Below the pieces are notes generated by a model, which saw only the letters and a program-made list of their open reading frames with translations, ran no database searches and was not told the DNA's origin. Shown here in pieces: positions 28 to 44,152 of a stretch of 64,000 nt of DNA. This DNA comes from an uncultured bacterium (GTDB lineage Bacteria > Armatimonadota > Hebobacteria > CAYNSX01), in the NCBI GenBank assembly GCA_964400165.1, contig CAYNSX010000008.1:91-64090 (forward strand). The letters are read 5' to 3'. The first letter of the stretch is position 1. The number at the start of each line of letters is the position of its first letter. Position numbers and translations under genes: made by a program.

Positions 28-202
28 CTAGCCCGGCCACTTCATGGCCGGGCGCGTGCCGCCCCACCCGCCCCTCGGCTTCGCCGGGCACCCTCCTTCG
101 CCAAGGCTTCGGACGGCAAGCCCTCTCCCCCTGGCCGACACGAGCCACCGGCTCGGGCAGGCGAACGGGAGAGGGAACAGATGTGAACTCCCTCTGTTGG
201 TT

Positions 203-229: not shown

Positions 230-280
230 TCAGCCTGCTCTCCGAAGCCTTGGCGAAGGAGAGGGGGTGAGGACGACTGT

Positions 281-301
281 CCCGGCACTGAAGTGCCGGG
301 C
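281..301. repeat. Hairpin cccggcac-tgaag-tgccgggc, the inverted copy of the element at 2384-2404
   Basis: Same palindrome on the opposite strand at 2384-2404, with a shared flanking tgattcag. Confidence 0.45.
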
Positions 302-529
302 TGAATCACACCGACACTGCTGAAGGTCTTCCGCCCTCGACTGAAGTCGGGGCGGCCTCGTTTCCTCGCCGCTGATTGCATGGTCGCCCTCACCCGGCCT
401 CGCTGCGCTCGGCCACCCTCTCCCTGAAGCGGAGAGGGACATCGCATCATCCCTCCTGCAAAATCGATCCTCGTTTCCTCGTTTCCTCGTTTCCTTGTTT
501 CCTCGCTGGTCGTTACACTGTTCCCGCCC

Positions 530-4645: not shown

Positions 4646-4685
4646 CCGCAGGCGCCGGCGGCTGATAGTCTGTGGTGTCCTTTAA

Positions 4686-4705
4686 TCCTGTCCCGAGAGG
4701 CAGGG
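4686..4705 (+). promoter_or_regulatory. Candidate PyrR-binding RNA loop (tcccgagaggca within stem cctg..cagg) in the pyrR leader
   Basis: Matches the PyrR binding-loop consensus UCCnGAGAGGCU. Sits ~240 nt upstream of pyrR. Confidence 0.4.
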
Positions 4706-4834
4706 AAGGCGATGCAGCGAAGCTGTGCACCATCTGCGTTGGCACATCTGGCGACCCGCTCGCGGCGCGCGAGGGGGTCGTTTTGTATGTGGGGGCAGCC
4801 GTCCTCACCCCGCGCATCGCTGCGCTCGGCGCGC

Positions 4835-4860: not shown

Positions 4861-4886
4861 CAGAAGAAAAAACTTCATTTCAATTT

Positions 4887-4913
4887 CCCCCTCTCCACTT
4901 GTTGGAGAGGGGG
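4887..4913. repeat. REP-like hairpin ccccctctcc-acttgttg-gagaggggg
   Basis: Inverted repeat of the same family. Confidence 0.55.
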
Positions 4914-4944
4914 CAGGGGGTGAGGGAGCTTTGGAGATGACTAC

Positions 4945-22820: not shown

Positions 22821-24173
22821 ATGCCCTATTTCGCCAACACGGATGCTGAACGCGAGGAGATGCTGCGCGCCATCGGCGCGGACAGCATTGATGACCTGTT
22901 CGCCGACATCCCCGCCGCCGCCCGCCTGACCGACCCGCACAACTTGCCGCCCGCCGCCTGGGAAGAGGAGTTGCGCCGCGACTTCGGCGCGATGGCGGCG
23001 CGCAACCGGACGCTGCTGTCGGGGCCGTCCTTCCTCGGCGCCGGCGTCTACCGGCACTTCATCCCGGCGGTGGTGGACCCGCTCATCTTCCGCAACGAGT
23101 TCTACACGGCCTACACGCCCTACCAGCCCGAGGCGAGCCAGGGGACGCTGCAGGCGACCTTCGAGTTCCAGTCGCTGCTGGCCGACCTGCTGCAGATGGA
23201 GGTGGTGAACGCCTCGATGTACGACGGCTCGACGGCGCTCGCCGAGGCGATTCTGATGGCGGCGGACCTGACGGGGCGCGGGCAAGTCATTCTGTCGGGC
23301 GGGCTGCACCCGGAATACCGGCGGGTGGTGCAGACCTACCTGCGCTCGCGCGGGCTGGAACTGATTCCGGTCGGCGGTATCGAGGGCGAGGGCGTGACGC
23401 CGGCGGCGACCGTGGCGGAGCGCATCGGCGACGGCACGGCGTGCGTGGTGGTGCAGCAGCCGAACTTCTTCGGCTGCGTCGAGGATGTCGGCGCGCTGGC
23501 GCAGGCGGCGCACGCCGCCGGCGCGCTGCTGGTGCAGACGAGCACCGACCTGACCGTATTCGGCGCGCTGAAGCCGCCGGGCGCGTGGGGCGTGAACATC
23601 CTGGCAGCGGAAGGGCAATCGCTCGGCGTGGCGCCGGGCTTCGGCGGGCCGCACCTGGGCATCATCGCCACCGAGGAGCGGTTCGTGCGGCGGATGCCGG
23701 GCCGGCTGGTGGGGATGACGAAGGACATCGAAGGGCAGCGCGGCTTCGTACTGACGCTGCAAACGCGCGAGCAGCACATCCGCCGCGATCGCGCCGCCAG
23801 CAACATCTGCACGAACAACGGCCTGCTCGCCATCGCGGCGGCGGTGTACCTCGCGGCAGTGGGGCCGGAGGGGCTGCGGCGCGTGGCGCTCCACTGCGTG
23901 CAAGGGGCGCACCGGCTGGCGCGCCTGCTGGGCAATCTGCCGGGAGTCGGGCTGATGTTCGAGGCGCCGTATTTCCACGAATTCGTGCTGCGGCTGCCGA
24001 AGGATGCGGCGGAAGTGAATGAACGCCTGCTCGACCGCGGCATCATCGGCGGGCTGCCGCTGGGCGACGAGTTCCCCGAATTGCGCAACTGTATGTTGCT
24101 GTGCGTGACCGAGACGAGCACGCCCGACGACTGGCGGCGCCTCTACGACGCCCTCAAGGACATGACCGGATGA
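22821..24173 (+). CDS. gcvPA: Glycine dehydrogenase (decarboxylating) subunit 1
   Basis: MPYFANTDAEREEMLRAIG N-terminus typical of GcvPA. The longer track ORF extension is an artefact. Confidence 0.9.
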   Translation: MPYFANTDAEREEMLRAIGADSIDDLFADIPAAARLTDPHNLPPAAWEEELRRDFGAMAARNRTLLSGPSFLGAGVYRHFIPAVVDPLIFRNEFYTAYTPYQPEASQGTLQATFEFQSLLADLLQMEVVNASMYDGSTALAEAILMAADLTGRGQVILSGGLHPEYRRVVQTYLRSRGLELIPVGGIEGEGVTPAATVAERIGDGTACVVVQQPNFFGCVEDVGALAQAAHAAGALLVQTSTDLTVFGALKPPGAWGVNILAAEGQSLGVAPGFGGPHLGIIATEERFVRRMPGRLVGMTKDIEGQRGFVLTLQTREQHIRRDRAASNICTNNGLLAIAAAVYLAAVGPEGLRRVALHCVQGAHRLARLLGNLPGVGLMFEAPYFHEFVLRLPKDAAEVNERLLDRGIIGGLPLGDEFPELRNCMLLCVTETSTPDDWRRLYDALKDMTG

Positions 24174-25630
24174 GCGAGCCGCTGCTGTCGGAGTTGAGCC
24201 GGCCCGGGCGGACGGGGGCGCTGCCGCCGGAGCCGCCGGGGCCCGATGTCAGGGAGCTGCTGCCGGCCGACTGGGTGCGCAGCGACGGCCCCGACTTGCC
24301 GGAGTTGTCGCAACCGCAAGTGGTGCGGCATTTCGTGCGGCTCTCGCGGCTGAATTATTCGGTGGACACGAATTTCTATCCACTCGGGTCGTGCACGATG
24401 AAGCACAATCCGAAGATCAACGAAGAAATCGGGCACCTGCCCGGGTTCCTGTGGGCGCACCCGCTGCAGCCCGCCTCCACGGTGCAGGGCGCGATCGAAA
24501 TGCTGTACCGCCTGCAAGAAGCGCTGTGCCGCATCGCCGGGATGGACGCATTCACGCTGCAGCCGGCGGCGGGGGCGCACGGCGAACTGACCGGGCTGAT
24601 GATGGTGAAGCGTTACTTCCAGGAGCGCGGTGAGTCGCGCACGCAGGTGCTGGTGCCCGATAATGCGCACGGGACGAACCCGGCCTCGGCGGCGATGCTG
24701 GGCTTTCAGGTGCAGTCGGTGCCGTCGGACGCGCGCGGGTTCGTGGACCTCGACGCGCTCGACGCCCGCCTGTCGAAGAACACCGCCGCCATCATGCTGA
24801 CGAACCCGAACACGCTCGGCATCTTCGATTCGCAAGTGCTCGAAGTGACGCGGCGGGTGCACGACGCCGGCGGGCTGCTCTACTACGACGGCGCCAACCT
24901 GAACGCGCTGCTTGGCATCACGACGCCGGGCGCGCTGGGCTTCGACATCGTGCACCTCAACATGCACAAGACTTTTTCGATTCCGCACGGGGGCGGCGGG
25001 CCGGGGGCGGGGCCGGTGGGCGTGAAGGCGCCGCTGCGCGACTTCCTGCCGGTGCCGCTCGCCGCGCAGGCCGAGGACGGGAGTTACTGCTGGGATTACG
25101 ATTTACCGCACACAGTCGGCAAGGTGAAGGCCTACCACGGGCACTTCCTCAACCTGGTGCGCGGGCTGGTGTACATCCTGGCGCACGGGCCGGACGGCCT
25201 GCGGCGCATCGCCGAGGATGCGGTGCTCAACGCGAATTATCTGCTCTCGCAATTGAAGGACGATTATGGCGCGCCATATCCGGGCTACTGCAAGCACGAG
25301 TTCGTGCTGTCGGCGTCGCGGCAGAAGGCGCTCGGGGTGCGGGCGCTCGACATCGCCAAGGCGCTGCTCGACTACGGCTTCTACGCGCCGACCATCTACT
25401 TCCCGCTCACGGTGGATGAGTGCCTGATGATTGAGCCGACGGAAACGGAAACGAAAGAAACGCTCGACGCCTTCGCCGCCGCCATGCGCGACATCGCCCG
25501 GCGGGCGGAGAGCGACCCGGAGTCGCTGCGCCAGGCGCCGGTGACGACACCGGTGCGCCGGCTGGACGAGGCGGGGGCGGCGCGCAAGCCGGTGCTGCGG
25601 TGGAAGCGGGAGGCGGCGGCGAAGGCCTAG
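24170..25630 (+). CDS. gcvPB: Glycine dehydrogenase (decarboxylating) subunit 2
   Basis: PLP-binding NLHKTFSIPHGGGGPG motif. ATGA overlap with gcvPA. Confidence 0.95.
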   Translation: MSEPLLSELSRPGRTGALPPEPPGPDVRELLPADWVRSDGPDLPELSQPQVVRHFVRLSRLNYSVDTNFYPLGSCTMKHNPKINEEIGHLPGFLWAHPLQPASTVQGAIEMLYRLQEALCRIAGMDAFTLQPAAGAHGELTGLMMVKRYFQERGESRTQVLVPDNAHGTNPASAAMLGFQVQSVPSDARGFVDLDALDARLSKNTAAIMLTNPNTLGIFDSQVLEVTRRVHDAGGLLYYDGANLNALLGITTPGALGFDIVHLNMHKTFSIPHGGGGPGAGPVGVKAPLRDFLPVPLAAQAEDGSYCWDYDLPHTVGKVKAYHGHFLNLVRGLVYILAHGPDGLRRIAEDAVLNANYLLSQLKDDYGAPYPGYCKHEFVLSASRQKALGVRALDIAKALLDYGFYAPTIYFPLTVDECLMIEPTETETKETLDAFAAAMRDIARRAESDPESLRQAPVTTPVRRLDEAGAARKPVLRWKREAAAKA

Positions 25631-25645
25631 TCACCTCTCCCCCCG

Positions 25646-25672
25646 ACCCCCTCTCCAACAAGTGGAGAGGGG
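25646..25672. repeat. REP-like hairpin ccccctctcc-aacaagt-ggagaggggg
   Basis: Same family. Confidence 0.55.
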
Positions 25673-25696
25673 GACACGGTTCATTCAGAGCACTTC

Positions 25697-33961: not shown

Positions 33962-34152
33962 GGGAAAAGTGATTGTATCGGGATAGGTGTGAGGTGTCAC
34001 GGCAAACGGGAAGAGCACTGTGAAGTCGGCTCGTCGGTCGTGGGAAAGTCGGTGGTCGGGTCGTCGGACACCTCGGCCCCCATTTCCCAACGCTCCTACG
34101 ACCCCACGACCCCACGACCGCTTGTTCCCGCCTCCCTGCCTCCCCGGTCTCT

Positions 34153-35403
34153 CTATCCAGCGAACAACGGATAAGTGCTGCACAATTCGCGCACTTCGGC
34201 GGCGGTGTGCGTGATCAGCGTCGCATCCTGCGGGGCGCGACAGATGGCGGCGATACGCTCGGCGGCCCACTGCATTTCGGCGACTCCCATCCCGCGCGTG
34301 GTGACGGCGGCGGGTCCGAGGCGCAGCGCGTGCATGGGAATGTCCCACGATTCGTTCGGCAGCGGCAGGCCGTTCGACAGGATGCCGGCGCGGGCGAGCG
34401 CCCGCTCGACCGTCATCGCATCGACTCGCAGCGGGCGCAGGTCGCCCATCAGCAGGTGCGTCTCGGTGCCGCCCCAGGCGAGCGGGATGCCGTTCGCTTG
34501 CAGCGCCTCGCCCAGGGCGCGGCAGTTGGCCAGGACACGCTCCATATAGGAGCGGAAGTCGATCGTCATTGCCTCGCCGAAGCAGGCGGCCTTGGCGGCG
34601 ATGACATGCATCGGCGGGCCGCCCTGGATGCCGGGCGCCATCGCGGCGTCAATGCGCTCGGCGAACTGGCCCCGGCAGAGAATGAGGCCGCCGCGCGGGC
34701 CGCGGAGGGTCTTGTGGGTGGTGAAGGTGAGGACATCGCAATATGGCACCGGGTCGGGATGCAGGCCGGTGCAGATGAGGCCGCCGAGGTGCGCGACATC
34801 GCCGAGGAGCAGCGCGCCGACCTCGTCGGCGAGCACGCGCCAGGGCGCCGGGTCGTACTTTGGCGGATACCACGAGTAACCGATGCAAATGATCTTCGGC
34901 TTGTGCTGCAGCGCGGCGGCGCGGGCGGCGCCGAGGTCGAGCAGCCAGGTCTCCGGATGCAGTTCGTATTCAGCACGGCGGTAGAGTTGCGCGGTCAGGT
35001 TGCCTTCGAGCGCGTGCGAGTAGTGCCCGCCCTGAAAGCGCTGCAGTGTCAGGATAGTGTCGCCCGGCTTGAGCAGGGCCGAAAAGCAGACGAGGTTGGC
35101 GACGGCGCCGGTAGCGGGCTGGACATTAGCGTGTTCGGCCCCGAAGAGGCGGCAAGCGCGGGCGACGGCGAGGCGCTCGATGTCGTCCACGATTTCGCAA
35201 CCGGGATAGTGGCGGTGGCCGGGATAGCCCTCGGCGTATTTGTTGGTGAGGACCGACCCCTGCGCCGCCAGCACCGCCGGGCTGACATAGTTCTCGGAGG
35301 CGATCAAGTTGAAGCAGAGGCGCTGCCGCTCGGCTTCCCGCGCGAGCAGATCGGCGAGTTCCGTGTCGGCGGCGGGCGCGGCGGTGGCGGACTGGGCGTC
35401 CAT
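34153..35403 (-). CDS. glyA: Serine hydroxymethyltransferase (copy 1)
   Basis: LIASENY and TTHKTLRGPRGG PLP-Lys motifs. Start MDAQSATAAP. Confidence 0.95.
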   Translation of the reverse strand: MDAQSATAAPAADTELADLLAREAERQRLCFNLIASENYVSPAVLAAQGSVLTNKYAEGYPGHRHYPGCEIVDDIERLAVARACRLFGAEHANVQPATGAVANLVCFSALLKPGDTILTLQRFQGGHYSHALEGNLTAQLYRRAEYELHPETWLLDLGAARAAALQHKPKIICIGYSWYPPKYDPAPWRVLADEVGALLLGDVAHLGGLICTGLHPDPVPYCDVLTFTTHKTLRGPRGGLILCRGQFAERIDAAMAPGIQGGPPMHVIAAKAACFGEAMTIDFRSYMERVLANCRALGEALQANGIPLAWGGTETHLLMGDLRPLRVDAMTVERALARAGILSNGLPLPNESWDIPMHALRLGPAAVTTRGMGVAEMQWAAERIAAICRAPQDATLITHTAAEVRELCSTYPLFAG

Positions 35404-35432: not shown

Positions 35433-35993
35433 CTACTCCTGCGCGGTGGCGAGGAGTCGTTCGAGCAGGGTGGTCAGTCCCAATTCGTTTGACCATTTTT
35501 GGAGATATGCGAGATCGAGCATGCCGGCCTGCACGCGCGCAACCGAGAGCGCATCTGTCCACTGCCGCTCCGATTGCGACTCCGCGTGCCAGCGCAACTT
35601 GGAGAGGATAAGATCTTCGGGCGTGCAGACAAAGGCCTGCGTGTCGAGGAACTCTCGGCGACTTCGCCGAGCAAAGGCTTCTCGATCGTACGCCGTGTCC
35701 GCCACTGGCCAATAGTCCACTTTCAATCCGGTCGGTTGATGGATGGCGTTGAAGAGGTCGCGCTCGCTCACCGCTCGTGCGGCCTCGTTCGAATCGAAAT
35801 AGAAGTCCGAACCAAGCGCCCGGCGTAGCGGTTCGATGGCAGCCGCTTCGAGCGCCACCACAATGTCAAAATCGTGCGTGGCGCGGGAGAGGGACCACGA
35901 ACCGAGCGCGACCCCACCAGTCACCATGTATGGAATGCGACACTCCTCCAGCGCGCGCACCACTACGGCCAGGACTGCGCGCAAATCGTTCAT
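35433..35993 (-). CDS. Nucleotidyltransferase-fold protein (MNT-like GG..A...S..R.T.D.D motif), candidate toxin/antitoxin component
   Basis: TGGVALGSWSLSRATHDFDIVV. 186 aa. ATGA-coupled to the small upstream ORF. Confidence 0.65.
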   Translation of the reverse strand: MNDLRAVLAVVVRALEECRIPYMVTGGVALGSWSLSRATHDFDIVVALEAAAIEPLRRALGSDFYFDSNEAARAVSERDLFNAIHQPTGLKVDYWPVADTAYDREAFARRSRREFLDTQAFVCTPEDLILSKLRWHAESQSERQWTDALSVARVQAGMLDLAYLQKWSNELGLTTLLERLLATAQE

Positions 35994-36220
35994 TTGGACA
36001 GTGAATTCAGCACCTTGGCAGCCATCGGCGCGCCCAGCACTCGCCGCAGGAACTCCGCATGAAACTCTGTTTCAGTGAATTCAGGGTGCTGCTGACGAAT
36101 GCCCTGCATCAGCAATTCCCGGGAAATATCCGACAACTGTGCTGCAAGATCTGCGCGCCGTTCCGGCGTCATCGCGCGGAAGATTTCAATTTGCATCCGT
36201 TCGGCATCGCGGGGGCGCAT
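35990..36220 (-). CDS. Small helical protein (~77-88 aa) translationally coupled to the nucleotidyltransferase. Start uncertain (36220 or 36256)
   Basis: ORF whose stop overlaps the NTase start (ATGA). No recognised motif. Confidence 0.45.
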   Translation of the reverse strand: MRPRDAERMQIEIFRAMTPERRADLAAQLSDISRELLMQGIRQQHPEFTETEFHAEFLRRVLGAPMAAKVLNSLSK

Positions 36221-36260
36221 CGCAATCAGTGTAGGCCGCGCCCGGCGGCGCGGCAATGCG

Positions 36261-37571
36261 CTACGGCGTCACCCACCCGTAGACGGGATGCTGGTCGCAC
36301 AGGGCGCGGGCCTCTTCGCGCACTTCGACGCGGAACTCGGGCCGCTCCGGGTGCTGCAAGACGCGCAGCAGCAGGTCGCCGACCTTGTCCATCTCCGCCT
36401 CGCCGAAGCCGCGCGAGGTGACCGCGGGCGTGCCCGGGCGCAGGCCCATCGGGCGATAGGGCGGGCTGTGGTCGAAGGGCACCGTGTTCTTGTTGACGAA
36501 GATGCCGGCCTCTTCGAGCGCCGCCTGCGCGTCGGCGCCGTTCCAGGGCGTTCCGCACAGGTCCACCAGCATCAAGTGCGTCTCGGTGCCGCCGGTGACG
36601 AGGCGGAAGCCGGCGTCCAGCAGCCGCTGCGCCAGAATTTGGGCGTTGACCAGCACCTGTTCCTGATAGGCGCGGAACTCGGGCATCGCTGCCTCGGCGA
36701 AGCAGACGGCCTTGGCCGCCACCTGGTGCATAAACGGCCCCGCTTGCACGCCCGGGAAGACGGCCCGGTCGATGGCCTCGGCCAGTTCCGGGCGGCAAAG
36801 AATGAAGGCGCCGCGTGGGCCGCGCAGCGTCTTGTGCGTGGTGGCAGTGACGACATCGGCGTAAGGCACCGGGTTCGGGTGCAAGCCAGCGGCGATCAGG
36901 CCGGCGGTGTGCGCAACATCGGCGACCAGGTAGGCGCCGATTTCGTCCGCGAGGTCGCGCCACTCCGCCCAGTCGATCTGCCGCGGATAGGCGCTGTAGC
37001 CGACGACGATCAGCCGCGGCTGCCAGGCATGCGTCAGCGGGCGCACGCTCGCCGCGGTGAAGCGTTCGGCTTCCGGGTCGAGTTGATAGGAGACGACGCC
37101 GTAATAGCGCGACGAGAAGTTCACCCGCGCGCCGTGCGTCAGGTGGCCGCCGTGATTGAGCGCCGGCGCCAGGATGGTGTCGCCGGGCTTGAGCAGCGCG
37201 TAATAGGCAGCCATGTTGGCGAGCGCGCCGGAGAGCGGCTGCACATTGGCGTGCGCAGCGCCGAACAGCGCCCGGCAGCGCTCGACGGCGAGGCGTTCGA
37301 CTTCGTCCACCCAGGTGCAGCCGGGGTAATAGCGATGGCCGGGATAGCCCTCGGCGTATTTGTTGCTCATCACCGAGCCGCTCGCCTCGAGGACAGCGCG
37401 GCTGGCGTAGTTTTCGCTCGGGATCAGGTTGATGCAGTGCTGCTGCCGCTCGCGCTCGCGGCGCAGAGCGGTCGCGAGTTCGTCATCGACTTCAGCCAGC
37501 GGGCGCGCCAGCAGATCCGAGAGGGAAGAGAGCAATGAGTCCACTGCGCAAAGTGTAGCGCCAGCGCGCAC
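36261..37571 (-). CDS. glyA: Serine hydroxymethyltransferase (copy 2, paralog). Exact start uncertain (GTG at 37571 or 37545)
   Basis: LIPSENY and TTHKTLRGPRGA motifs. About two-thirds identical to copy 1 by eye. Confidence 0.9.
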   Translation of the reverse strand: MRAGATLCAVDSLLSSLSDLLARPLAEVDDELATALRRERERQQHCINLIPSENYASRAVLEASGSVMSNKYAEGYPGHRYYPGCTWVDEVERLAVERCRALFGAAHANVQPLSGALANMAAYYALLKPGDTILAPALNHGGHLTHGARVNFSSRYYGVVSYQLDPEAERFTAASVRPLTHAWQPRLIVVGYSAYPRQIDWAEWRDLADEIGAYLVADVAHTAGLIAAGLHPNPVPYADVVTATTHKTLRGPRGAFILCRPELAEAIDRAVFPGVQAGPFMHQVAAKAVCFAEAAMPEFRAYQEQVLVNAQILAQRLLDAGFRLVTGGTETHLMLVDLCGTPWNGADAQAALEEAGIFVNKNTVPFDHSPPYRPMGLRPGTPAVTSRGFGEAEMDKVGDLLLRVLQHPERPEFRVEVREEARALCDQHPVYGWVTP

Positions 37572-37589
37572 GCGCGTTGTGCGCAGGGT

Positions 37590-37960
37590 GTGGAAGAGGG
37601 GCGGTGCGGCGAATCAGTGCTTGAAGTGCCAAACGCCCTTCAGCGCCCTCACCCGCCCGTCGCTGCGCTCCGTGCGCCCTCTCCCTGAAGTGGAGAGGGA
37701 CTACGCATCACCCCTCGGTGCAATCCGACCCTTGTTTCCTCGTTTCCTCGTCTTTGGTCTCTCAATGCTTGAAATGCCTTATGCCCGTCATCACCCTCAC
37801 CCGCCCGTTGCTGCGCGCCGGGCACCCTGCTTCGCCAACGCTTCGCAGGGCAAGCCCTCTCCCTGAAGCGGAGAGGGACAACGCATCATCCCTCGGTACA
37901 ATCTGAACCTTGTTTCCTCGCTTCCTTGTTTCCTCGTCTTTGGTCTTTCAATGTTTGAAG
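37590..37960. repeat. Tandem array (2 full plus 1 partial copy, ~180-bp unit) of the dispersed repeat element. Each unit carries a copy of the purH 3' end (ttgaagtgccttatgcccgtcatcacc) and an inner hairpin ccctctccctgaag(c/t)ggagaggg
   Basis: Direct comparison of 37600-37775 with 37776-37955. The last copy overlaps the purH stop codon. Confidence 0.65.
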
Positions 37961-39492
37961 TGCCTTATGCCCGTCATCACCATCGCCAGGCCGCGCTCAT
38001 CGGCGGCGGCGACGATGTCGTCGTCCGACTTCGAGCCGCCCGGCTGCAGGATGGCTGTCACGCCCGCGTCCGCCGCGGCATCAATCGCGTCGCGCTTCGG
38101 GAAGAACCCGTCGGAAGCGAGCGCGGCGCCGCGGGCGCGGGCGCCCGCCTTGGCGACCGCCTGCTTCACTGAATCGACACGGCTGGTCTGCCCGCCGCCG
38201 ATGCCGACCGCGTGCGTGCCCTGCGCCAGCACGATGGCGTTCGAGCGCGTGTGCTTGGCGACGCGCTCGGCGAATCGCAGGCCTTCCCCCTCGGCGGCGG
38301 TGGGCTGCTTCTTCGTCACCACCCGCGGCTCGTCGGCGACCGCAGTATCCATCTCCTGCATCAGCATCCCGCCCGCGATGCGCCGCCAGTCGTAGGTGCC
38401 CTCGGGCGGCGCTTCCAGGGAAACCGTGAGCAAGCGCAGGTTGGCGGACTGCTTCAGAGTCGCCAGCGCGCCGTCCGAAAATCCCGGCGCGGCAATGACT
38501 TCGAGAAACCCCGCGTTCGCAATCGCTGTGGCAGTGTCGTCATCCACCGGCGCATTGCAGGCCACTACGCCGCCGTAGGCCGACAGCGGGTCGCCGGCGT
38601 GCGCGGCACGGAAGGCGGCGGCGAGCGTCGCGTCGCTCGCCGCACCGCAGGGCGTGTTGTGTTTGATGATGCACGCGCCCGGCGGCGGCAGGTCGAGGAC
38701 GAGCGACAGCGCCGCGTCCAGATCGAGGTAGTTGTTGTACGACGGCGCCTTGCCGTGCAGCAGGTGTCCGTGGGCGGCGCCGCTCACCGGGCCGAGCGTG
38801 TCGAGATAGAGCGCCGCGGCCTGGTGCGGGTTTTCGCCGTAGCGCAGCGTGAACGCCAGGTCCCAGCCGCGGGTGATGCTGGGCGGGAACTTGCGCCGGT
38901 CGCCGCCGAGCATGCCGGACAGGTAGTGGGCGATGCTGGTGTCGTAGCGCGCCGTGTGCGAGAACGCGCGCAACGCCAGCCGCTCGCGCCCGGTGAGCGA
39001 GATGTCGCCGCGCTCCTGCAGTTCGGCGAGGACGCGCGGATATTCGTCCGGGTCGGTGATGACGATGACGCCGAGGAAGTTCTTCGCCGCGGCGCGAATG
39101 AGCGCCGGCCCGCCGATATCGATGAATTCGAGACACTCTTCGAGCGTGACACCGGGCCGGCGCGCCGTGTCGGCGAAGGGATACAGGTTCACCGCCACCA
39201 GGTCGATCGGCGCGATGTCGTGCTCCTGCAGCGAGGCCATGTCGTCTTGCCGGTCGCGGCGGGCGAGCAGGCCGCCGTGGATTTTCGGGTGCAGCGACTT
39301 TACCCGCCCATCGAGCAACTCCGGAAAGCCGGTGTAATCGGAGACCTCGTTGACAGGGACGCCCTCGCTCTTGATAAGCGCCGCGGTACCGCCGGTGCTC
39401 ATGAGCGTGACGCCCAGTTCGTGCAGGCCGCGGGCGAAGTCGGCGATGCCGCGCTTATCGGAGACGCTCAACAGCGCGCGGCGGACAATCAT
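37948..39492 (-). CDS. purH: Bifunctional AICAR transformylase / IMP cyclohydrolase
   Basis: MIVRRALLSVSDKRGIADFARGL N-terminus (MGS-like) and AICARFT domain. Confidence 0.95.
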   Translation of the reverse strand: MIVRRALLSVSDKRGIADFARGLHELGVTLMSTGGTAALIKSEGVPVNEVSDYTGFPELLDGRVKSLHPKIHGGLLARRDRQDDMASLQEHDIAPIDLVAVNLYPFADTARRPGVTLEECLEFIDIGGPALIRAAAKNFLGVIVITDPDEYPRVLAELQERGDISLTGRERLALRAFSHTARYDTSIAHYLSGMLGGDRRKFPPSITRGWDLAFTLRYGENPHQAAALYLDTLGPVSGAAHGHLLHGKAPSYNNYLDLDAALSLVLDLPPPGACIIKHNTPCGAASDATLAAAFRAAHAGDPLSAYGGVVACNAPVDDDTATAIANAGFLEVIAAPGFSDGALATLKQSANLRLLTVSLEAPPEGTYDWRRIAGGMLMQEMDTAVADEPRVVTKKQPTAAEGEGLRFAERVAKHTRSNAIVLAQGTHAVGIGGGQTSRVDSVKQAVAKAGARARGAALASDGFFPKRDAIDAAADAGVTAILQPGGSKSDDDIVAAADERGLAMVMTGIRHFKH

Positions 39493-42258: not shown

Positions 42259-43104
42259 TTACAGCAGTATGTCCGCCGCGGTGCAGAGGAAGAGCAGCGC
42301 CGAGACCAGGCCGTTGGCGGTAAAGAAGGCGGCGTTCACCCGGCTGAAGTCATTGGGCTTCACCAGCGAGTGCTCCCAGAGCAGCAGCGCCCCGGTGGCG
42401 GCGACGCCGACGGCATAGAACATCTGCAGCGACATCTGCACGCCCAGCACCAGCAGCAGCGCCACCATCCCGGCGTGGCACGCCCGCGACACCCACAGCG
42501 CCGGCCCGGCGCCCAGCCACGCCGGCAGCGACTTCAGGCCCGCTTGCCGGTCGAAGGCGATGTCCTGGCACGAGTAGATGATGTCGAAGCCGGCGGTCCA
42601 CAGCGTCACCGCCGCGGCGAGGACGACGGGCGGCCAGGCCAGGTCGCCGCGCATCGCCACCCACGCCGCCGCCGGCGCGATGCCGAGCGCGCTGCCCAGC
42701 CAGAAGTGCGACAGGACAGTGAAGCGCTTCGACAGCGAGTAGGTGAGCAACACCAACAGCACGACCGGCGACAGCCGCAGCGCCAGCGGGTTCAATTGCC
42801 AGGCCGCCAGCACCAGCAGCCCCGACCCGACTACTACGACGGCCCATAGAGCCGCCACCGACACCTTGCCGCTCGGCACCACCCAGCGCTGCGTGCGCGG
42901 GTTTTGCCGGTCGAAGGGCAGGTCGGCGATGCGGTTGAAAGCCATTGCCGCCGACCGGGCGCCGACCATCGCCACCACAATCCATCCCACCACGCGCCAC
43001 GCCGGCCAGCCGCCCGCCGCCAGCATCATCCCCATCAGCGCGAACGGCAGGGCGAACACAGTATGTTCGAATCGTATGGCCTGCGCCAGCAGGCGCAGCC
43101 GCAT
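42259..43104 (-). CDS. UbiA-family polyprenyltransferase (MqnP-like)
   Basis: Multi-TM with Asp-rich prenyl-diphosphate motifs (NRIADLPFD). Start placed at the MRLRLL ATG, immediately downstream of an AT-rich repeat. Confidence 0.85.
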   Translation of the reverse strand: MRLRLLAQAIRFEHTVFALPFALMGMMLAAGGWPAWRVVGWIVVAMVGARSAAMAFNRIADLPFDRQNPRTQRWVVPSGKVSVAALWAVVVVGSGLLVLAAWQLNPLALRLSPVVLLVLLTYSLSKRFTVLSHFWLGSALGIAPAAAWVAMRGDLAWPPVVLAAAVTLWTAGFDIIYSCQDIAFDRQAGLKSLPAWLGAGPALWVSRACHAGMVALLLVLGVQMSLQMFYAVGVAATGALLLWEHSLVKPNDFSRVNAAFFTANGLVSALLFLCTAADILL

Positions 43105-43135
43105 GAATAATGAATGATGAATAATGAATGGACTA
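43104..43135. repeat. AT-rich TGAATGA-type repeat (catgaataatgaatgatgaataatgaatgg), inverted partner of 43529-43560
   Basis: Reverse complement matches the ATTCATCATTCA tandem motif at 43529-43560. Confidence 0.55.
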
Positions 43136-43528
43136 CGCCCCACTCCCGCCGCCTTTCGCGAGTCGGCGGAGGGAGGCAATGTAGCCATTCAGTTGCCGAA
43201 TAACCGATCGCGTGCCCTCGGTCAAGCGCTCCAATTGTGCAGCCTTCTCGGGTTCGACAAGTGACATCGTGTGCAGATGATCGATGAGTTCCCACGCGGA
43301 GCCACGAGCGATGTACAAGAACTGAATCCGGTCACGATACCCAAACCGACCGAAGGCCTCCGCGATGTTGGCGGATATCGAGAATGCGGCGGAGAAAGTT
43401 TGCTCCTCGATACGACTCTTCCGCAGCCGGTTAGTCCCAAGTAATGCAACGACCTCCGACTTCAGCGTGCGCGCTTCCTTGTAGAGTGCCATGTCCAAGA
43501 GGTCGCGTGACCCTGGAGTGTCAGTCAT
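43133..43528 (-). CDS. Four-helix-bundle protein (23S rRNA intervening-sequence protein family, TIGR02436-like)
   Basis: 131 aa. The family is well known. The gene is bounded by AT-rich inverted repeats and interrupts the ubiD-ubiX-ubiA array. Confidence 0.7.
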   Translation of the reverse strand: MTDTPGSRDLLDMALYKEARTLKSEVVALLGTNRLRKSRIEEQTFSAAFSISANIAEAFGRFGYRDRIQFLYIARGSAWELIDHLHTMSLVEPEKAAQLERLTEGTRSVIRQLNGYIASLRRLAKGGGSGA

Positions 43529-43560
43529 TCATCATTCACCATTCATCATTCATCCTTTTA
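43529..43560. repeat. AT-rich TCATTCA-type repeat (tcattcatcattcaccattcatcattcatcc)
   Basis: See 43104-43135. Confidence 0.55.
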
Positions 43561-44107: not shown

Positions 44108-44152
44108 ACGAATGGGATTCGGCGGCGACGCTGGTACCGCCTTTGGCTGCGG

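Follow-up and report, generated by a model that had tools for sequence, protein, structure and literature searches.

The 3' end of the purH gene of an uncultured bacterium, contained in a 64-kb stretch of DNA (64,000 nt; hereafter ‘the window’), is followed by an array in which the last 30 nt of the gene occur three times as direct repeats, separated by two copies of a short repeat element (here termed ‘E’). Read along the minus strand, on which purH lies, the order is end3 (30 nt), E2 (156 nt), end2 (30 nt), E1 (118 nt), end1, unique DNA and then a glyA-like SHMT gene. The array comprises two full ‘purH end plus E’ units of 186 and 148 nt (which are also the spacings between the 30-nt direct repeats), together with a third copy of the gene end alone. 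We regard E as a short (118-156 nt), non-coding and non-autonomous composite repeat of a poorly sampled, uncultured lineage, and the locus as a case of local genome instability that involves no new regulatory RNA or defence system. The history that we favour, although as a whole it falls somewhat short of an even chance, is a single insertion of E accompanied by a 30-nt target duplication, followed by duplication of the whole unit. The features of the locus are as follows.

37948 to 39492, minus strand: purH (AICAR formyltransferase/IMP cyclohydrolase), an intact open reading frame of 514 aa with the Pfam domains MGS and AICARFT_IMPCHas and the C-terminus MVMTGIRHFKH*
37948 to 37977, minus strand: end3, the working last nine codons and TGA of purH, ATGACGGGCATAAGGCACTTCAAACATTGA
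37792 to 37947, minus strand: E2, 156-nt copy of the composite repeat, in which an R octamer run and a middle part are followed by the hairpin, an additional module of 30 nt and GGGTGAGGG; the purH frame runs open through it
37762 to 37791, minus strand: end2, a non-functional copy of the purH end, ATGACGGGCATAAGGCATTTCAAGCATTGA, with two synonymous differences from end3
37644 to 37761, minus strand: E1, the shorter copy of the composite repeat (118 nt), which shares 90.7% identity with E2 when two indels are left aside
37614 to 37643, minus strand: end1, a decayed copy of the purH end, CTGAAGGGCGTTTGGCACTTCAAGCACTGA (translated LKGVWHFKH*), colinear with the sole purH end of a close relative and with the DNA downstream of it
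36261 to 37544, minus strand: glyA-like SHMT gene downstream of the array, with a likely GTG start at 37544 and TACACT at 37552-37557; its upstream block is kept in the relative and untouched by the array

A preliminary description of this DNA had reported the tandem triplication of an element of about 180 bp. The purH end is indeed present three times, but only two full units exist (about 2.2 head-to-tail copies), and Tandem Repeats Finder called neither a period of about 180 nt nor any other long-period array at this position. The repeated segment encodes the C-terminal end of the protein (…MTGIRHFKH*), and because PurH homologues from many phyla share the ending (M/F)TGxRHF(K/R)H, these terminal residues are under selection. 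Decay of the three copies rises with distance from purH: end2 differs from end3 at 2 of 30 positions (both changes synonymous) and end1 at 7 of 30, including an R to W change in the conserved RHFKH motif. Five to six of the changes in the 30 nt of end1 are private to it, more than would be expected from the 9-13% pairwise divergence of the E copies. A duplicated purH end was absent from all 62 further purH loci taken from GTDB representative genomes, and no other gene-end duplication was found in the window or in the corresponding loci of the close relative (together about 130 kb of the lineage).

Repeats of 150-190 nt are capable of confusing short-read assemblers, and an array of this type might in principle consist of collapsed or mis-joined repeats. 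That explanation can be set aside almost entirely. The array recurs without a single base change in an independent JGI metagenome contig (L001), which has an identical purH sequence and differs from the window at 11 of 7255 nt, all of them outside the array; in addition, the two units are separated from each other by 13 substitutions and two indels, which renders their assembly unambiguous. Nine of the 11 differences between the two assemblies cluster in the 5' part of glyA (window 37185-37341, L001 7046-7202), at the contig end, and may stem from exchange with the SHMT paralogue or from reads of the two genes having been mixed.

A comparison with the nearest relative provides the corresponding ‘empty site’. 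Among 5.8 billion protein clusters, PurH has one close relative (95% amino acid identity), the next best matches reaching 54-56%; the best match in GTDB representative genomes stands at 52%, and the closest named relatives of the window's LepA are Armatimonadota with about 65% identity. The close relative is represented by three contigs (L002, L003 and L004) that belong to one species and have mutually identical purH nucleotide sequences, and its four-fold degenerate purH sites differ from those of the window by 22.9%. It has one purH end, followed by 70 nt to the SHMT gene (glyA) without any E. This single end aligns both to end3 and to end1, the DNA downstream is colinear from end1 onward, and the window holds 334 nt extra between the two alignments. 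Because the relative's lone end can be aligned in both ways, the additional 334 nt would represent either an insertion in the window lineage or a precise removal in the relative through recombination between the ends. Copy number is alike in the two assemblies of the window species and zero in the relative, in which (contig L085) the E copy near lepA is likewise missing, along with the whole mosaic of more than 500 nt upstream of that gene. The idea, voiced in the preliminary description, of a mobile or recombinogenic intergenic element that was duplicated together with a gene end is well borne out by these comparisons, in that E is dispersed and insertion-polymorphic and the relative is empty at both purH and lepA. 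The array lies in the purH 3' UTR, upstream of a conserved, promoter-like glyA block, and has no demonstrated function. The hexamer TACACT is placed about 10 nt upstream of the start codons of both lepA (518-523) and glyA (37552-37557, minus strand) and is conserved in the relative, a placement that suggests leaderless transcripts or transcripts with a very short leader.

Several other differences between the two species were observed along the same loci. Between valS and the second SHMT gene, the window has about 150 nt more than the relative (33982-34160), with a 23-nt repeat present twice and ACGACCCC present 2.8 times, and the cassette between the SHMT paralogues differs altogether (ORFs of 186 and 88 aa at window 35433-36256, an unrelated 164-aa ORF at L002 13232-13726). 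A small gene of the 23S_rRNA_IVP family (minus strand, about 43130-43527) separates a UbiX-like flavoprotein gene from ubiA and has heptamer runs in inverted orientation on its two sides (ATGAATA four times at 43103-43130, TCATTCA four times at 43525-43554); the entire cassette (window 43103-43560) is absent from the relative, where a similar ATGAATGA run is found upstream of lepA (L085 9834-9870). The relative, in turn, carries a FitA-like/PIN toxin-antitoxin pair (L002 5043-5728) that is missing at the orthologous point of the window (about 44127-44150). The leader GTCCTTTAATCCTGTCCCGAGAGGCAGGGAAGGCGA upstream of a pyrR-like gene is strongly conserved (window 4680-4720, L085 14085-14125); it looks like a PyrR-binding attenuator, although it yields nothing in Rfam at gathering score.

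Beyond the array, E and its constituent parts are found at the following positions.

385 to 514, minus strand: third full E copy, located 20 nt before the start codon of lepA, lacking a purH end and 87-88% identical to E1 and E2
279 to 384, minus strand: R-H element adjoining the third full E copy, in which a short GAGGAAAC run precedes two hairpins whose loops read CTTCAG; the relative has the same architecture
82 to 129, plus strand: 48-nt module (family D20), 92% identical to the E2 segment that spans the 30-nt module missing from E1, and located in loop 2 of another triplex-type motif
37855 to 37878, plus strand: 8-bp hairpin of E2, CCCTCTCC/GGAGAGGG with the loop CTGAAGC; equivalents at 37677-37700 (E1) and 416-439 (lepA copy)

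Each E copy consists of a 5' ‘R’ part (GACCA followed by three to five GAGGAAAC octamers), a middle part and a 3' part, the last of which has the block order CCCTCTCC, 7-nt loop, GGAGAGGG, 18-49 nt and GGGTGAGGG. The first loop measures 7 nt, and the second loop, up to GGGTGAGGG, reaches 49 nt in E2, against 19 nt in E1 and 18 nt in the copy at lepA. The hairpin and the octamer runs that had been singled out in the preliminary description are genuine: the hairpin pattern CCCTCTCCCTGAAG(C/T)GGAGAGGGA has three matches in the 64 kb against 0.00 expected (at the three hairpin positions given above), and runs of the GTTTCCTC octamer occur at three sites (37730-37751, 37908-37934 and 468-505), well over chance. 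That description had also placed related copies throughout 80-530, next to lepA; one full E copy and the 48-nt sub-module are present there, while the other hairpin modules of the region are unrelated. A profile built from the three E copies, run with nhmmer over 1.6 Mb of fetched sequence, recovered E1, E2 and the lepA copy as the only full copies, plus partial matches to the 3' half.

Searches further afield returned little. An exact-pattern scan for the E core gave no match in GTDB representative genome contigs or in a subset of JGI metagenome contigs; a concatenate of E peptides from all six frames had no match among the 5.8 billion protein clusters; and blastn of E against plasmids and phages gave one marginal Deinococcus match and nothing else. 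The hairpin pattern by itself matched two generic triplex-type hairpins in viral contigs of IMG/VR, the composite E being absent from that set. Uniqueness to two loci and lack of conservation had been named beforehand as an argument against a mobile element, and the composite E is indeed largely so restricted (two loci, absent in the relative), whereas its sub-modules are widespread.

The lineage, in other words, has a BIME/RIME-like set of short modules that combine and nest. The R part of E recurs in the relative, where it is joined to the ‘H’ module and lies 12 nt behind a stop codon. Behind lepA, the H module (a pair of hairpins with the loop CTTCAG) is conserved in both species, and it has five exact sites in the relative's metagenome (L088-L092). 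Nesting is exemplified by a 61-nt insert within loop 2 of a triplex-type motif. Canonical short-loop triplex motifs are also present in the window (for example, at 4885-4925), and unrelated viral contigs contain versions in which the second loop is about 21 nt long and the hairpin loop is again CTGAAG. Modules of the triplex or hairpin kind are found elsewhere 0-12 nt behind stop codons. The 9-mer GGCACTTCA, which the purH end shares with the H hairpins, occurs five times in the window against 0.35 expected, twice in purH ends (37956-37964 and 37622-37630), twice in H hairpins (289-297 and 2388-2396) and once elsewhere (23053-23061); because of this shared 9-mer, a nuclease or recombinase acting on H hairpins might miscut purH at GGCACTTCA.

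Eight hairpins with stems of at least 8 bp, each stem different, carry TTCA or TGAA centrally in the loop (positions 9, 41, 289, 425, 2393, 14890, 37686 and 37864). It is common in this genome for a repeat module to adjoin or overlap a stop codon: the carB ORF (11528-14788) extends about 16 codons into a hairpin repeat module (14740-14790), and the family of that module also begins directly after the TAG of a glycine-cleavage P-like gene (25628-25675).

A different outlook on the array would be that the purH-glyA spacer holds a selected functional RNA or regulatory element (a terminator, a stabilizer, an sRNA or a read-through extension) that was amplified because it is useful. The 8-bp hairpin is kept in all three E copies, and E2, at exactly 52 codons, is open in the purH frame (37792-37977), such that read-through of the TGA would add 62 residues and regenerate the ending MTGIRHFKH*. 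Two of the six frames of E2 are open in any case, so this continuity is probably due to chance, and the length of E1 is not a multiple of three. Rfam gave no match at the gathering threshold across the whole window and, at E<=10 for the locus, only chance-level matches with best E-values of 2-9. When the three E copies were folded on both strands with ViennaRNA, z-scores ranged from -0.9 to +0.7, no better than shuffled sequences, and the single 8-bp hairpin was the only stable structure. The purH strand has no terminator-like site, the relative does with a 70-nt spacer that is free of E, and the lepA copy is antisense to its neighbouring gene. The Rfam and folding results give no support to the earlier proposal of a ‘structured RNA’ (or to membership in a known structured RNA family), and selection for function is a very improbable origin of the array.

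Several established classes of element were also considered and rejected. The term ‘MITE-like’, used in the preliminary description, is not supported in its strict sense: E has no terminal inverted repeats (none was detected by an inverted-repeat scan of 37400-38100, and its 5' end GACCAAAGACGAGG does not match the reverse complement of its 3' end CRCCCTCACCCGCC), and no related transposase is seen in the window. A tRNA-derived, SINE-like origin was dropped after ARAGORN found nothing. A diversity mechanism of the DGR type does not agree with the lack of a reverse transcriptase and with differences between copies that are not A-specific, a CRISPR-like array does not agree with ‘spacers’ that are homologous to one another, and no dif-like palindrome was found that would indicate a dif/Xer site. 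Genes for transposase, integrase or Cas1 were found neither among the 20 window ORFs scanned nor in the annotated syntenic loci.

The relationship between the two units gives an indication of how the array grew. In a global alignment, the unit of end3 and E2 and the unit of end2 and E1 differ by 13 substitutions over 148 aligned nt (91.2% identity), spread over both parts (2 of 30 nt in the purH end, 11 of 118 in E), together with two indels, one of a single octamer and one of a 30-nt module flanked by AGGGY microhomology. The unit boundaries are identical in both. E1 and E2 are 90.7% identical to each other and 87-88% identical to the lepA copy (11 mismatches against 14-16, a difference that is not statistically decisive). 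Duplication of the whole unit is favoured because E1 and E2 are the closer pair and share the same boundaries. The initial event, on the other hand, would have to place E between two gene ends, because tandem duplication of a ‘purH end plus E’ segment leaves no end distal to E.

In the first step of the history that we favour, one copy of E would have entered the extreme 3' end of purH, and the last 30-32 nt of the gene, including the stop codon, would have come to lie on both sides of it; the arrangement itself is observed directly, and the mechanism is deduced from it. Staggered breaks that were subsequently filled in would yield such a target duplication, either by a transposition-like process or during break repair that captured an E copy. 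The upstream gene end would retain the essential …RHFKH C-terminus and stop codon, leaving purH intact, and the downstream end would become neutral and then decay. In a second step, suggested by the uniform divergence of the units, the ‘purH end plus E’ segment would have been duplicated by unequal homologous recombination or replication slippage between the 30-nt repeats, to give the order end3-E2-end2-E1-end1. Later, one octamer may have been gained or lost, and a 30-nt module may have been lost from E1 (or gained by E2) between AGGGY microhomologies. This scenario draws on the empty site, the intact purH gene, the gradient of decay, the alignment of whole units, the dispersed occurrence of E, its triplex motif and the absence of mobility genes.

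Of the families with which the array can be compared, the BoxC/PIT/TM elements of E. coli resemble it in the architecture of the 3' half of E. E1, E2 and the lepA copy all match the three-block order CCCTCTCCC / GGGAGAGGG / GGGTGAGGG on one strand, as tabulated for TM_ECO (PMC4666352), and the two sets are alike in being intergenic, multi-copy, gained or lost between close relatives and often situated right behind stop codons. Holder et al. (2015, NAR, PMC4666352) report that polymerase stalls in vitro at triplex motifs of this type, which also mark intergenic loci that are hypervariable. In the ITxF definition, however, the loops of an intrastrand triplex motif measure 1-6 nt (PMC4666352), whereas loops 1 and 2 of E measure 7 and 18-49 nt, and the triplex of E is a prediction from block order; moreover, E has an extra 5' half (octamer run and middle part) that is missing in E. 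coli. The BoxC/TM pair that immediately follows the hrpB stop codon (hrpB-mrcB) in E. coli MG1655 (L093, 164,5xx) is absent from strain AR_0104 (L094), with no target duplication, and has collapsed to one hairpin in strain 07_3636 (L095). Because the gain or loss of that pair leaves none, a long duplication is not a general property of the triplex module, which on the strength of the analogy would count against the scenario of insertion with target duplication. The empty-site string of AR_0104, TGAAGACCAAAG, resembles the purH/E junction, TGAAAGACCAAAG, probably by coincidence.

BIMEs and RIMEs are, respectively, the REP-containing mosaics of enterobacteria and the mosaic elements of rhizobia. 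E and its companions resemble them in consisting of short hairpin modules in varying orders (R-P, R-H and nested loop-2 inserts), in their intergenic or operon 3' UTR positions and in their restriction to one lineage, and many of the modules start with GACC; unlike them, the modules in the 64-kb window lack a conserved GTAG-type REP signature. BIMEs are not known to duplicate gene ends. MIRU-type VNTRs of mycobacteria are head-to-tail spacer repeats whose copy number shifts through slippage or unequal exchange; they too lie between genes of like orientation and extend across the stop codon region of the first gene, but the units at purH are longer (148-186 nt), few in number (about 2.2 copies) and built around a dispersed mosaic element, and they include 27 coding bases of the upstream gene. 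Insertion sequences with long target duplications are represented by the IS1202 group (about 27-28 bp) and by IS1630 (19-26 bp, at terminators), and a target duplication of about 30 bp together with insertion near gene 3' ends would be common ground with E, which nevertheless has neither terminal inverted repeats nor a transposase, and no related IS was found.

Integrative elements offer a further parallel. They duplicate a gene 3' end as attL and attR, and tandem accretion of ICEs and CIMEs takes place in this manner (for example, at fda in Streptococcus thermophilus). At purH, as in an att duplication, E is flanked by direct repeats that consist of the final few tens of bases of the gene and stop at the gene end, the gene is intact, and the displaced original end would be the distal one of the tandem array. 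A small circle carrying E and its own purH 3' end might have recombined with the chromosomal purH end in a Campbell-type fashion, restoring the gene and displacing the resident end, after which a second, gene-proximal integration would have produced the tandem. A boundary exactly at the stop codon is the hallmark to be expected of an element that rebuilds a gene end; the best-preserved and presumably newest copy adjoins the gene, the oldest being farthest away; end1 departs from the other two ends by more than the E copies differ from each other, as if it had already been different when displaced; and all three ends in the window use TGA, where the relative uses TAG. Against this stand the small size of the inserted DNA (118-156 nt, or a circle of 148-186 bp), the absence of any integrase or other site-specific recombinase from the window and the syntenic loci (one acting in trans from elsewhere in the genome is possible), the lepA copy, which lacks a purH end and indicates that E is not bound to this att site, and the resemblance of E1 and E2 to copies of each other and not to independent arrivals. 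Taken together, these points make integration of a circle an unlikely origin.

A repair accident that involved no dedicated mobility machinery is a better candidate, although still a doubtful one. A break or a stalled fork at the purH end might have been resolved by template switching or illegitimate joining that copied E from elsewhere, or E might have been imported from an allele with E behind its stop codon by homology-facilitated illegitimate recombination, the last 30 nt being re-copied in the process; a triplex- or hairpin-prone repeat, or mis-cleavage at the GGCACTTCA that is shared with the commonest hairpin repeat of the lineage, could have served as the trigger. Triplex-type motifs have been tied to polymerase arrest and local rearrangement (PMC4666352), the excess of GGCACTTCA sites includes H hairpins and purH ends, a GGTG microhomology is present at the E2/end2 junction, similar modules follow closely behind stop codons elsewhere, and the event is unique, as an accident would be. 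On the other side, the microhomology is just 4 nt long, the resemblance of the E 3' end to purH upstream of the junction does not otherwise exceed chance (2.5-10% of random 27-mers do equally well), two precise junctions would be needed in one event, and an accident gives no reason for a boundary exactly at the stop codon.

The first event could be explained by any of four mechanisms, namely staggered breaks about 30 nt apart, an att- or Campbell-type circle, homology-facilitated illegitimate recombination and template-switch break repair. The filling of staggered breaks is preferred because it creates both junctions in one step and does not need an E-borne purH end (which the lepA copy lacks), and in this form the first step is unproven. 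Several observations count against the scenario of insertion and unit duplication. Gene-end duplication is seen at a single locus in about 130 kb of the lineage, and around the lepA copy no duplication is convincing (the two flanks are about 52% alike, judged by eye). At purH, the boundary of the 30-nt direct repeat coincides with the stop codon, and for random staggered cuts this would be a coincidence of about 1 in 30. The divergence of end1, judged from the sequence to be greater than that of the E copies from each other, would also speak against it.

None of the families considered fits fully, and the array is best described as a lineage-specific mosaic repeat with an unusual, gene-preserving insertion footprint. 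It illustrates how an essential gene tolerates insertion into its last codons, through duplication of the gene end, with one copy left free to decay. For gene callers, the pseudo gene ends and the frame left open through E2 are potential pitfalls, and the number of units could be used as a strain marker in this uncultured lineage. An array that comes with an empty-site comparator is a rare footprint, and could constrain how mosaic repeats of the BoxC/triplex type spread. If the 30-nt repeat were a true target-site duplication, such repeats would be moved, at least in this lineage, by an enzyme making breaks about 30 nt apart beside stop codons and possibly guided by the CTTCA-loop hairpin motif that the purH end mimics (GGCACTTCA). 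We consider this improbable, but in that event the purH array would be the first preserved footprint of the enzymatic mechanism concerned.
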